Of a stretch of 64,000 bases of DNA, positions 33,567 to 36,140 are shown piece by piece (the first letter of the stretch is position 1; every line of letters starts with the position of its first letter). Both the position numbers and the translations under genes were made by a program. A model generated the notes under the pieces. The model was given only the letters and a program-made list of their open reading frames with translations. It made no database searches and was not told the origin of the DNA. The DNA comes from Vulcanimicrobiota bacterium (GTDB lineage Bacteria > Vulcanimicrobiota > Xenobia > Xenobiales > JADMJV01): positions 14,510 to 78,509 of the forward strand of contig JBJHCR010000001.1 of the NCBI GenBank assembly GCA_050486105.1, in the 5' to 3' direction.

Positions 33567-35183
33567 ATGAGGCCATCCCGTTCTCGAGGATTTTCTGCAG
33601 GAGGTGCTTTGGTCATGGTGGCTATTGTGGCCATCCTGGCCGGAGCTCTAAGTCGATTAGTGGTCAACCATCTCTATCTTGGACAGCGCCTGGAGAACGG
33701 TTCCCGAGCCCTGAACTTGGCCAAATCGGCCACCGCTCAGGCGGTGGCCGAACTGATCGCCGATCAAGGTTTCGGAACCACCGAAGAGGCTTCCGCTACG
33801 GTACGGTTGGAGATCGAGGGTGGGCTAGGCCTGCTCACTTTCTCGGAAGCTCAGGCCTCAGCCTTGGGCATCTCCTGCTCTACCAATAATCTGGAATCGA
33901 CAACCGCGATCCAAGCACCCGATGGAAAATCGGTGAGGGGTTCAACGGTTCGACTGCTGGCCCAAGGCCGATTCGGCGGGGTCACTCGAACGGTGGAATC
34001 GGTGATCGAAATTCCTCAGTTTCCTTGGGCTGTGGCTGCGGGGGGGAAGGTCAGCCTTGAGCAAGGTGTCCTCATCGGCTCCTTGCCCGAAGGAGTTTGG
34101 CCTCCGGTCTTGGAGGACTTGCTTCCGGCTGACGTAGTGTCGAACTCCGACTCAGGCGACGCGGTGATTCTAGCCCGGCAAACCACGGTCTTGGGAGATG
34201 TGGAAACTCCTGGAAGGGTCCAACTCGGAGACGACACAGTGCTGATCGAAGGAGCTATCTTGGAAGGAGCAGCTCCGTTGTCTATTCCGCTGCTCGATGC
34301 TAGTCAGTACGATCCTCTGCTCTCCGGTTTAGAGTACGATGATCTCACCTCCACTGCCGAGGTCTTCGAGCCTCTCACCCTAATGGGAGTTGCTCGAAGC
34401 GATCTAAGCTTGAGTCTACCCGGTGGATTGATTCTTCAAAAAGCCCAGCTGTTTGTGGACGGCGATCTGTGGATTCAAGGCACTCTAGAGGGAGAAGGTG
34501 TCCTAGTGGTCACCGGAGATCTCACTTTGGAGGGTCTGGCAAATCTTGAAGGTGCAACCAAACTCGCCCTCCTGGCTGATGGCCGGGTCTCCCTGCAAGG
34601 GCGTGGCCCCACAGAGAGTAAGTTTCGTGTGCTGGTCTTCTGTGGTCAGGGGGTCGAGGTTGGCAGAATGACCTTGGTCGGCTCGCTGGTTGCAGGTCAA
34701 AGTGGAGCCGATGTCAGGCTCTCGGAAACGTATCTGGTCGCCGAAAAAGCGGCCTCACCGGAAGTGAGTAAAGAGTTCTACATAGGGACCCTTGATCCCA
34801 ACAACCCGCGCTACCACGACGAGAGCGTTAGCGACATCCCCCCTCCGTCCGGGTCCCTACTTAGGCTCAAATTTTGGCGAGAGACCGAGGCAGACTATCC
34901 TGTAGAAGTTGAGTTTCAGTACCGGCAGAATCCGCCCTATTTTTGGACTATCGCCAACGCCGCAGACACCTGGCGAGTGCAAACCGAGTTGAGCTGGCTC
35001 TTGGATGATTGGACCGAAGTGCCGAGAGATGAATGGGTTGAGACCATTCTGGATCGATTTCCGCTGAGCAGTTTCACCGAACAGATAACCAGTGAATCCG
35101 CCACCAGTTCCTTTGGGTCTGATTTGTCCCACTTGATACCGGTTAAGGATCGCATAAGGATGATCTCTTGCTTCGAGCACTGA
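33567..35183 (+). CDS. Large pseudopilin, GspK/PilX-like (prepilin-type N-terminus lacking Glu5)
   Basis: The leader MRPSRSR-G|FSAGGALVMVAIVAILAGAL is short, basic and ends in Gly, followed by a hydrophobic helix. The 538-aa product has a beta-rich remainder. It lies immediately upstream of two canonical pseudopilins. Confidence 0.5.
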   Translation: MRPSRSRGFSAGGALVMVAIVAILAGALSRLVVNHLYLGQRLENGSRALNLAKSATAQAVAELIADQGFGTTEEASATVRLEIEGGLGLLTFSEAQASALGISCSTNNLESTTAIQAPDGKSVRGSTVRLLAQGRFGGVTRTVESVIEIPQFPWAVAAGGKVSLEQGVLIGSLPEGVWPPVLEDLLPADVVSNSDSGDAVILARQTTVLGDVETPGRVQLGDDTVLIEGAILEGAAPLSIPLLDASQYDPLLSGLEYDDLTSTAEVFEPLTLMGVARSDLSLSLPGGLILQKAQLFVDGDLWIQGTLEGEGVLVVTGDLTLEGLANLEGATKLALLADGRVSLQGRGPTESKFRVLVFCGQGVEVGRMTLVGSLVAGQSGADVRLSETYLVAEKAASPEVSKEFYIGTLDPNNPRYHDESVSDIPPPSGSLLRLKFWRETEADYPVEVEFQYRQNPPYFWTIANAADTWRVQTELSWLLDDWTEVPRDEWVETILDRFPLSSFTEQITSESATSSFGSDLSHLIPVKDRIRMISCFEH

Positions 35184-35572
35184 GGTTGTCGCCCAGTGAC
35201 TCCGGCTTTAGCCTGGGCGAGTTCGCCTTGGTGAGCTGCCTGGTCTGTATGCTGCTGATTTCCTTGGTGAATCTATTTCCCTCGAGTCTGATAGCGGTGA
35301 ACAGCAGCCAGCAACGGCAACAGGCCTATAACTTGGCTCAGAATGCGCTGGCGATGGTCCAGGCGCGATCGTTCACCAGCCTCCATCAGGGGCCACTGGA
35401 CCTGCCAGAGTTGGAGGTTCCTCCGGGCTACGAACTGTCCATAACCGTCACTCCGGTGGATCCCTATTCCTTCGACCACCTCAAGCGAGTGTCTGTTCGG
35501 GTGGATTGGCAGGTCCGACAGCGGAATCTGAATCTGGCGGAGGATCTCCTTGTTCACCCAGCCCGTCCATAG
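35168..35572 (+). CDS. Prepilin-type pseudopilin (GspI/minor pilin-like)
   Basis: Class III signal: MLRALRLSPSDSG|FSLGEFALVSCLVCMLLISLV with the G-F-S-L-x-E cleavage/methylation motif. 134 aa. Confidence 0.65.
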   Translation: MLRALRLSPSDSGFSLGEFALVSCLVCMLLISLVNLFPSSLIAVNSSQQRQQAYNLAQNALAMVQARSFTSLHQGPLDLPELEVPPGYELSITVTPVDPYSFDHLKRVSVRVDWQVRQRNLNLAEDLLVHPARP

Positions 35573-36140
35573 GAACAACTCTAAGCGGACAAATCACTCT
35601 GGCTCAGGCCTGACCTTGGCGGAGGTCCTGGTTGTTGCCACCTTGATGGTTCTTCTCTTGAGCTTGATTCTCGGTATCCTCTTGAGTTCTTTTCGGGTTT
35701 CCGCTGATGGGGCATCGAAAGTTGAACTCGAGCAAAGACTGCTGCTTCTCGCACAGAGATTGACAACGGACCTCAAGATGGCCTCTAAGAGTTCGGTGCA
35801 GGTTCTCGGACCCTCTCTATCCATTCACCGTCGTCTCAAGAACCCAACTTTGCTGGCCTGGGATACCGACCTGGTGATCTATAGGCTGCTGGATCAGGGA
35901 CTTGAGCGACGAGTTGTGCCGGCTCCGGTGACCGATCGCCCATTTCGACCCTCCTCGGAATCCGAATGGCAAGCCCTCTTGAGTGCGCAAGCTCAGGAGG
36001 TTCGGATCTTCTCCGATGTGTCGGAGTTTGAGGTGGAGGTCGGCAAGGAGGCCCTGGTCACCTTTAGCTTGTTGGTGACTCAGGGCCACAGACGAGGCCG
36101 TGTTCAGCGCGTAGTCTTTTTGCCACAGTCCGGAGGATAG
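35550..36140 (+). CDS. Prepilin-type pseudopilin (GspJ/PilW-like)
   Basis: HSGSG|LTLAEVLVVATLMVLLLSLILGIL with the G-L-T-L-x-E motif. 196 aa. Confidence 0.6.
   Translation: MFTQPVHRNNSKRTNHSGSGLTLAEVLVVATLMVLLLSLILGILLSSFRVSADGASKVELEQRLLLLAQRLTTDLKMASKSSVQVLGPSLSIHRRLKNPTLLAWDTDLVIYRLLDQGLERRVVPAPVTDRPFRPSSESEWQALLSAQAQEVRIFSDVSEFEVEVGKEALVTFSLLVTQGHRRGRVQRVVFLPQSGG

Follow-up and report, generated by a model that had tools for sequence, protein, structure and literature searches.

Three overlapping minor-pilin genes in a Vulcanimicrobiota bacterium, probably the priming and tip set of a type IV filament, with a ComZ-like beta-solenoid in the tip candidate

Three consecutive genes with prepilin-like N-termini raise the question of which machine they serve, since no major pilin is found beside them in the window, i.e. 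in the whole stretch of 64,000 nt (64 kb) analysed here. The sequence-only reading had described them as three overlapping, co-directional prepilin genes, and we confirmed its ORF positions, the overlaps of 16 nt (538-aa and 134-aa genes) and 23 nt (134-aa and 196-aa genes), and the start of the first gene 81 nt past the stop of a 1243-aa ORF at 29755–33486, which leaves a gap of 80 nt. Both overlaps were found again in the closest relative (L012), and the 23-nt overlap of the two small genes also occurs in L001, L013 and L016, making four loci with L012. Because the overlaps recur in related loci, the start codons listed in Table 1 and the tight coupling of the trio are supported. The NCBI product of the large gene (P0001, 522 aa) begins at Met17, which hides the conserved leader.

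Table 1. Features of the minor-pilin locus and its downstream neighbours (positions in the window; the arrow marks the predicted prepilin cleavage site)
Feature	Position	Strand	Properties
Predicted tip/capping minor pilin, PilX/GspK class with inserted beta-solenoid (ComZ-like architecture)	33567..35183	+	538 aa, ATG; leader MRPSRSRG↓FSAGG, no Glu5
Small minor pilin, PilV/GspI class	35168..35572	+	134 aa, TTG; mature 121 aa, G↓FSLGE, Glu5
Medium minor pilin, tentatively PilW/GspJ class	35550..36140	+	196 aa, TTG; mature 176 aa, G↓LTLAE, Glu5
Membrane Ser/Thr protein kinase, Hanks-type	36705..37985	+	Pfam Pkinase 4e-45; exported N-terminal domain by eye, one transmembrane segment
FHA + BTAD (SARP/TPR-like) protein	38013..39413	+	Pfam FHA 2e-8, BTAD 1e-9
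PilC/GspF-type inner-membrane platform paralogue	39410..40447	+	345 aa; Pfam T2SSF 2e-40, two stretches

As read from the sequence, the 538-aa protein starts with MRPSRSRG↓FSAGGALVMVAIVAIL, showing Gly at position +5 and no Glu5, whereas Glu5 is present in both the 134-aa protein (MLRALRLSPSDSG↓FSLGEFALV) and the 196-aa protein (...NHSGSG↓LTLAEVLVV). Homologues of all three proteins in related loci show the same N-terminal features, so the prepilin motifs of the trio are not due to chance. In the family alignments, Gly-1 and Glu5 are invariant in both small families, joined by Asn35 and Pro38 in the 134-aa family; in the large family, most of those sequences that include the N-terminus share the motif G↓x-S/T-x-G-G. 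The whole window was then scanned in all six frames for the pattern 'G-hydrophobic-S/T-x-x-[E/G...]' combined with a 22-residue hydrophobic stretch, and the trio accounted for all credible pilin-type ORFs in the 64 kb. This motif scan found neither a major pilin nor a FimU/GspH-type fourth core minor pilin in the window; most related loci likewise contain the trio only, and such a fourth pilin may be encoded elsewhere. Apart from the two small trio families, Glu5 pilin-type ORFs are absent within ±10 kb in 16 of the 17 related loci, the exception being L006, where one unclassified Glu5 pilin ORF (180 aa, mature) lies beside a second PilX-like gene. The earlier remark that no major pseudopilin is nearby therefore holds for the 64-kb window and for ±10 kb in 16 of 17 related loci.

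According to its structural model and a fold search, the large protein (about 530 aa when mature) is a pilin domain interrupted by a beta-solenoid of about 300 residues that resembles ice-binding proteins. The best pilin-class structural match of the pilin domain was GspK, and a GspK-like fold is present, while the best full-length match in the PDB was ComZ of Thermus, at a TM of about 0.25 and 13–14% identity. Four strands precede the solenoid, and the final conserved strand (531–537, motif IPxKDRIRVVSWFE) would pair with the pilin sheet, as suggested by the order of secondary-structure elements, the conserved C-terminal motif and the collinear ComZ alignment. Not one of the 24 large-family members matched Pfam T2SSK or PilX_N, and the weak matches among them were to DUF7305 (6/24) and pAdhesive_15 (2/24). 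Searching PDB sequences with the three family profiles yielded only N-terminal helices or a bactofilin stretch, the latter being the sole match of the 24-sequence profile of the large family (E 0.2). For the genome scan, a 9-sequence subset was used, since all 24 sequences together proved too diverse. The identification of the large protein as GspK was rejected, as a ComZ-like beta-solenoid replaces the alpha-helical insertion of GspK and a T2SSK match is lacking. The mature protein is acidic (pI 4.4, solenoid 4.2), as is the family throughout (pI 4.3–5.7), which is indirectly more in keeping with an adhesin or plug than with a DNA receptor.

With the three window proteins alone, nothing scored above cut-off in Pfam and NCBIfam; the two small proteins were classified via their families. 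The 134-aa family matched the PilV model TIGR02523 in 9/10 members (best 6e-6, window protein 0.014), all below the 52-bit cut-off, and also matched the GspI model TIGR01707 (5/10 members, best 5.7e-5) and the XpsI model (6/10 members), again below the cut-offs. The 196-aa protein is only tentatively placed in the PilW/GspJ class by weak similarities confined to its N-terminal part. Its family matched neither T2SSJ nor a PilW model, its profile reached one PF11612 protein with an E value of 5.6e-4 over the N-terminal 60 residues only, and hhalign against a T2SS-J protein aligned just these 60 N-terminal residues. Among the weak matches of this family is HpsC, a pseudopilin from the system that secretes polysaccharide in cyanobacteria, and a word-indexed homologue search with the 196-aa protein retrieved only the protein itself. 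The trio had previously been called GspK-I-J-like, which was right as to the pilin class and broadly right as to the K, I and J roles, given the matches of the 134-aa family to PilV, GspI and XpsI, but the large protein is not itself a GspK.

The platform gene at 39410–40447 had been overlooked in the first reading. It lies 3.3 kb downstream of the trio and codes for a paralogue without the first ~65 residues of GspF, which scored 190 bits on the GspF model of NCBIfam vs. 160 bits on that of PilC, both below the cut-offs. Its start is overlapped by 4 nt by the stop of the FHA-BTAD gene. Homologues of the platform protein are encoded within 10 kb of the trio in 8/17 related loci and are fused to a GAF domain in four of them (L006, L008, L009 and L017), and L006 holds both the platform paralogue (39% identity) and a separate canonical T2SSF protein (27%). 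Kinase homologues (E<1e-40) accompany the trio at no more than 10 kb in 10/17 loci, and orthologues of the FHA-BTAD protein, with 45–54% identity where aligned, are found beside the trio in four (L007, L012, L013 and L016). The FHA-BTAD protein is probably a phospho-Thr-dependent partner of the kinase. Its phmmer matches in the PDB were only to TPR and FHA proteins, not to EmbR, and the SARP-type DNA-binding domain that we place, by inspection, between FHA and BTAD is putative.

The trio is intact in 13/17 related loci, where it appears in several gene orders, and the 134-aa gene adjoins the large-protein gene in the window and in 13 of these 17 loci. The named relatives of the loci belong to Eremiobacterota/Vulcanimicrobiota and the named family members to Xenobiia/Vulcanimicrobiota. 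L010, L011 and L017 each have the platform gene grouped with the trio in one compact, co-directional block that contains no major pilin. L006 is equipped with PilM, a T2SSE/MshEN PilB-type ATPase and a canonical T2SSF protein (a second PilC) within 8 kb of the trio. These genes and the platform paralogue 3.3 kb away in the window contradict the earlier idea of a tip complex that stands alone. In the window itself, Pfam scans of ORFs of at least 150 aa revealed no ATPase, secretin or prepilin peptidase, and Rfam no riboswitch or other RNA. Because a major pilin, ATPase, secretin and prepilin peptidase are all missing from the 64 kb, we infer the machine rather than see it. The sole member of the phylum in culture produces type IV pili, with which it performs phototaxis (PMC9758169).

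We consider it likely that the trio is a core minor-pilin set with which its host, a diderm and Eremiobacterota-like bacterium, builds the priming and tip complex of a type IV filament, most probably a pilus. This comes close to the case that the sequence-only reading had set against its own proposal, namely ordinary minor pilins whose pilus system is encoded elsewhere. The three proteins would be made as inner-membrane-anchored prepilins, which a prepilin peptidase encoded outside the window presumably trims. The Glu5-bearing 134-aa and 196-aa proteins may, as the analogous GspK-I-J and ComZ-PilA2 complexes suggest, pack via their N-terminal helices beneath the 538-aa protein, and the latter, because it lacks Glu5, should be able to take only the top position. 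At the tip of the filament, the acidic solenoid would then serve as a plug or adhesin, and the tip complex could nucleate the polymerisation of a major pilin encoded elsewhere. Polymerisation would proceed on a PilC-type platform, plausibly the dedicated paralogue encoded downstream, and be driven by a PilB-type ATPase encoded elsewhere, while the kinase and the FHA-BTAD protein, to judge from their conserved linkage, probably gate the expression or use of the trio.

The closest architectural counterpart is ComZ of Thermus thermophilus, a competence-associated tip pilin (PDB 6QVI) that acts with PilA2 as well as PilA1 and PilA3 (PMC6561018). Both large proteins have about 520–550 aa, a hydrophobic N-terminal helix that is missed by standard pilin predictors, and a GspK-like pilin domain with a large triangular, ice-binding-like beta-solenoid before the last beta-strand, and both are encoded beside a small GspI-like and other minor pilins. 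However, sequence similarity is not detectable between them, and the large family is acidic and contains an extra helical segment (467–529) after the solenoid. Moreover, the window locus codes for three pilins and has a PilC paralogue and a Ser/Thr kinase as its linked neighbours, whereas that of Thermus codes for four plus the major pilin PilA4. A second parallel is provided by the cyanobacterial core sets of PilX (with beta-solenoid), PilV, PilW and FimT, which are described as Com and EPS types and whose PilX proteins act with PilV and PilW in priming complexes, according to a preprint (bioRxiv 10.64898/2026.02.12.705559). Cyanobacterial PilX also lacks Glu5, carries its beta-solenoid between the penultimate and last strands, is a proposed tip plug replacing PilY1 and co-occurs with PilV and PilW in minor-pilin sets apart from the major pilin, and both hosts are diderms with S-layer-homology-domain outer-membrane proteins. 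The cyanobacterial sets nevertheless come from another phylum, the window lacks their FimT/FimU-type fourth pilin, and the likeness is one of architecture, not of sequence; in the parts of the preprint consulted, neither a platform paralogue (often GAF-fused) nor a Hanks kinase with or without FHA-BTAD is mentioned as a neighbour. The FimU-PilV-PilW-PilX-PilY1 set of Pseudomonas aeruginosa similarly consists of minor pilins whose genes lie apart from pilA and which prime assembly and occupy the tip, with a PilX lacking Glu5 and a PilV whose model is the one matched, below cut-off, by nearly all members of the 134-aa family. It differs in that FimU and PilY1 are absent from the window, where the bulky tip domain is part of the PilX-like protein instead of a separate one. 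The tapirins of Caldicellulosiruptor (PDB 6N2C, 4WA0) differ in lacking a pilin domain and in being separate proteins, whose genes lie in a pilus locus.

The main competitor of the type IV pilus reading is that the trio forms the tip of a T2SS-type pseudopilus, a short periplasmic piston on a GspF-like platform which exports proteins or polysaccharide without building a surface pilus. The cap subunit does share a prepilin-type N-terminus without Glu5 (RG↓FSAGG) with GspK, and the structural match of its pilin domain to GspK, the higher score of the platform protein on GspF than on PilC, the GspI and XpsI matches of the 134-aa family, the HpsC match of the 196-aa family and the compact platform-trio blocks of L010, L011 and L017 all fit such a system. 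All these HMM scores are, however, far below the curated cut-offs, and GspC, D, E, G, H, L and M were found neither in the window (Pfam scans, ORFs of at least 150 aa) nor in the conserved module. In the T2SS tips of known structure, GspK-GspI-GspJ of ETEC (PDB 3CI0) and XcpX-V-W of Pseudomonas (PDB 5VTM), the GspK insertion is alpha-helical and located between strands 3 and 4, while the window proteins match neither Pfam T2SSK nor T2SSJ and the window is devoid of a gspC-M operon, a secretin and GspG/H. A 56-kDa tip protein with a solenoid of about 300 residues has so far been described for pilus tips (ComZ and cyanobacterial PilX), not for GspK, and the motor genes of L006 include PilM, by its Pfam name a type IV pilus assembly protein. 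We thus regard a T2SS-type pseudopilus as unlikely, although type IV pilus and T2SS machineries are hard to separate cleanly in these lineages, so that this explanation overlaps with the preferred one.

Within the pilus reading, the trio might prime a dedicated competence pilus with the solenoid protein as a ComZ-like DNA receptor. ComZ, the best full-length structural match, binds DNA and is required for transformation (PMC6561018), and cyanobacteria possess a competence-specific PilX-Com/PilV-Com set, as stated in the preprint (bioRxiv 10.64898/2026.02.12.705559). The strong acidity of the large family argues against a general DNA-binding surface, though, the window contains no competence genes and the ComZ match exists at the level of architecture only, which makes a competence pilus improbable to our minds. 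Still far less probable is the original proposal of a minimal pseudopilus made of the trio only, without a major pilin, which would cap or present the 1243-aa protein, all four genes forming one operon. The four genes are indeed co-directional, the 80-nt gap contains no predicted terminator and the window holds no major pilin, but a major pilin is equally absent beside the minor pilins in 16/17 related loci. Predicted promoter and terminator sites were no more frequent than in shuffled sequence and so speak neither for nor against co-transcription with the giant gene. The giant product has an annexin core and, by eye, no N-terminal signal peptide, and none of the 17 related loci has a homologue of its gene within 10 kb of the trio. 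In the closest of these loci (L012, 59% identity), a 231-aa gene and the platform gene lie upstream of the trio instead. Because this linkage is not conserved, we rejected the annexin protein as cargo, and the cargo model is close to refuted.

The trio belongs to a kind of system already known and does not reveal a new kind of machine. If the preferred assignment to a type IV filament is correct, the Eremiobacterota/Vulcanimicrobiota join Thermus and the cyanobacteria as a third diderm lineage with the solenoid-in-tip-pilin design, which is relevant because the sole cultured member moves by type IV pili. That a minor-pilin set is recurrently linked with a PilC-type platform paralogue of its own and with a Ser/Thr kinase could also help to explain how pilus types are chosen. 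A bolder version, which we put forward as speculation and rather doubt, is a self-contained, signal-gated priming module in Eremiobacterota, composed of a PilC-type platform paralogue (GAF-fused or with FHA-BTAD), a Hanks kinase and a ComZ-like/PilV/PilW tip, in which phosphorylation or small-molecule sensing would load the module onto a shared motor and thereby switch filament types. If true, type IV filaments would be specialised through an exchange of both platform and tip, a strategy that to our knowledge has not been described previously. The assignment also gives a function and an architecture to a large-protein family of 1785 representative clusters at 50% identity, which is now labelled 'hypothetical' and of which no member exceeds a Pfam or NCBIfam cut-off.

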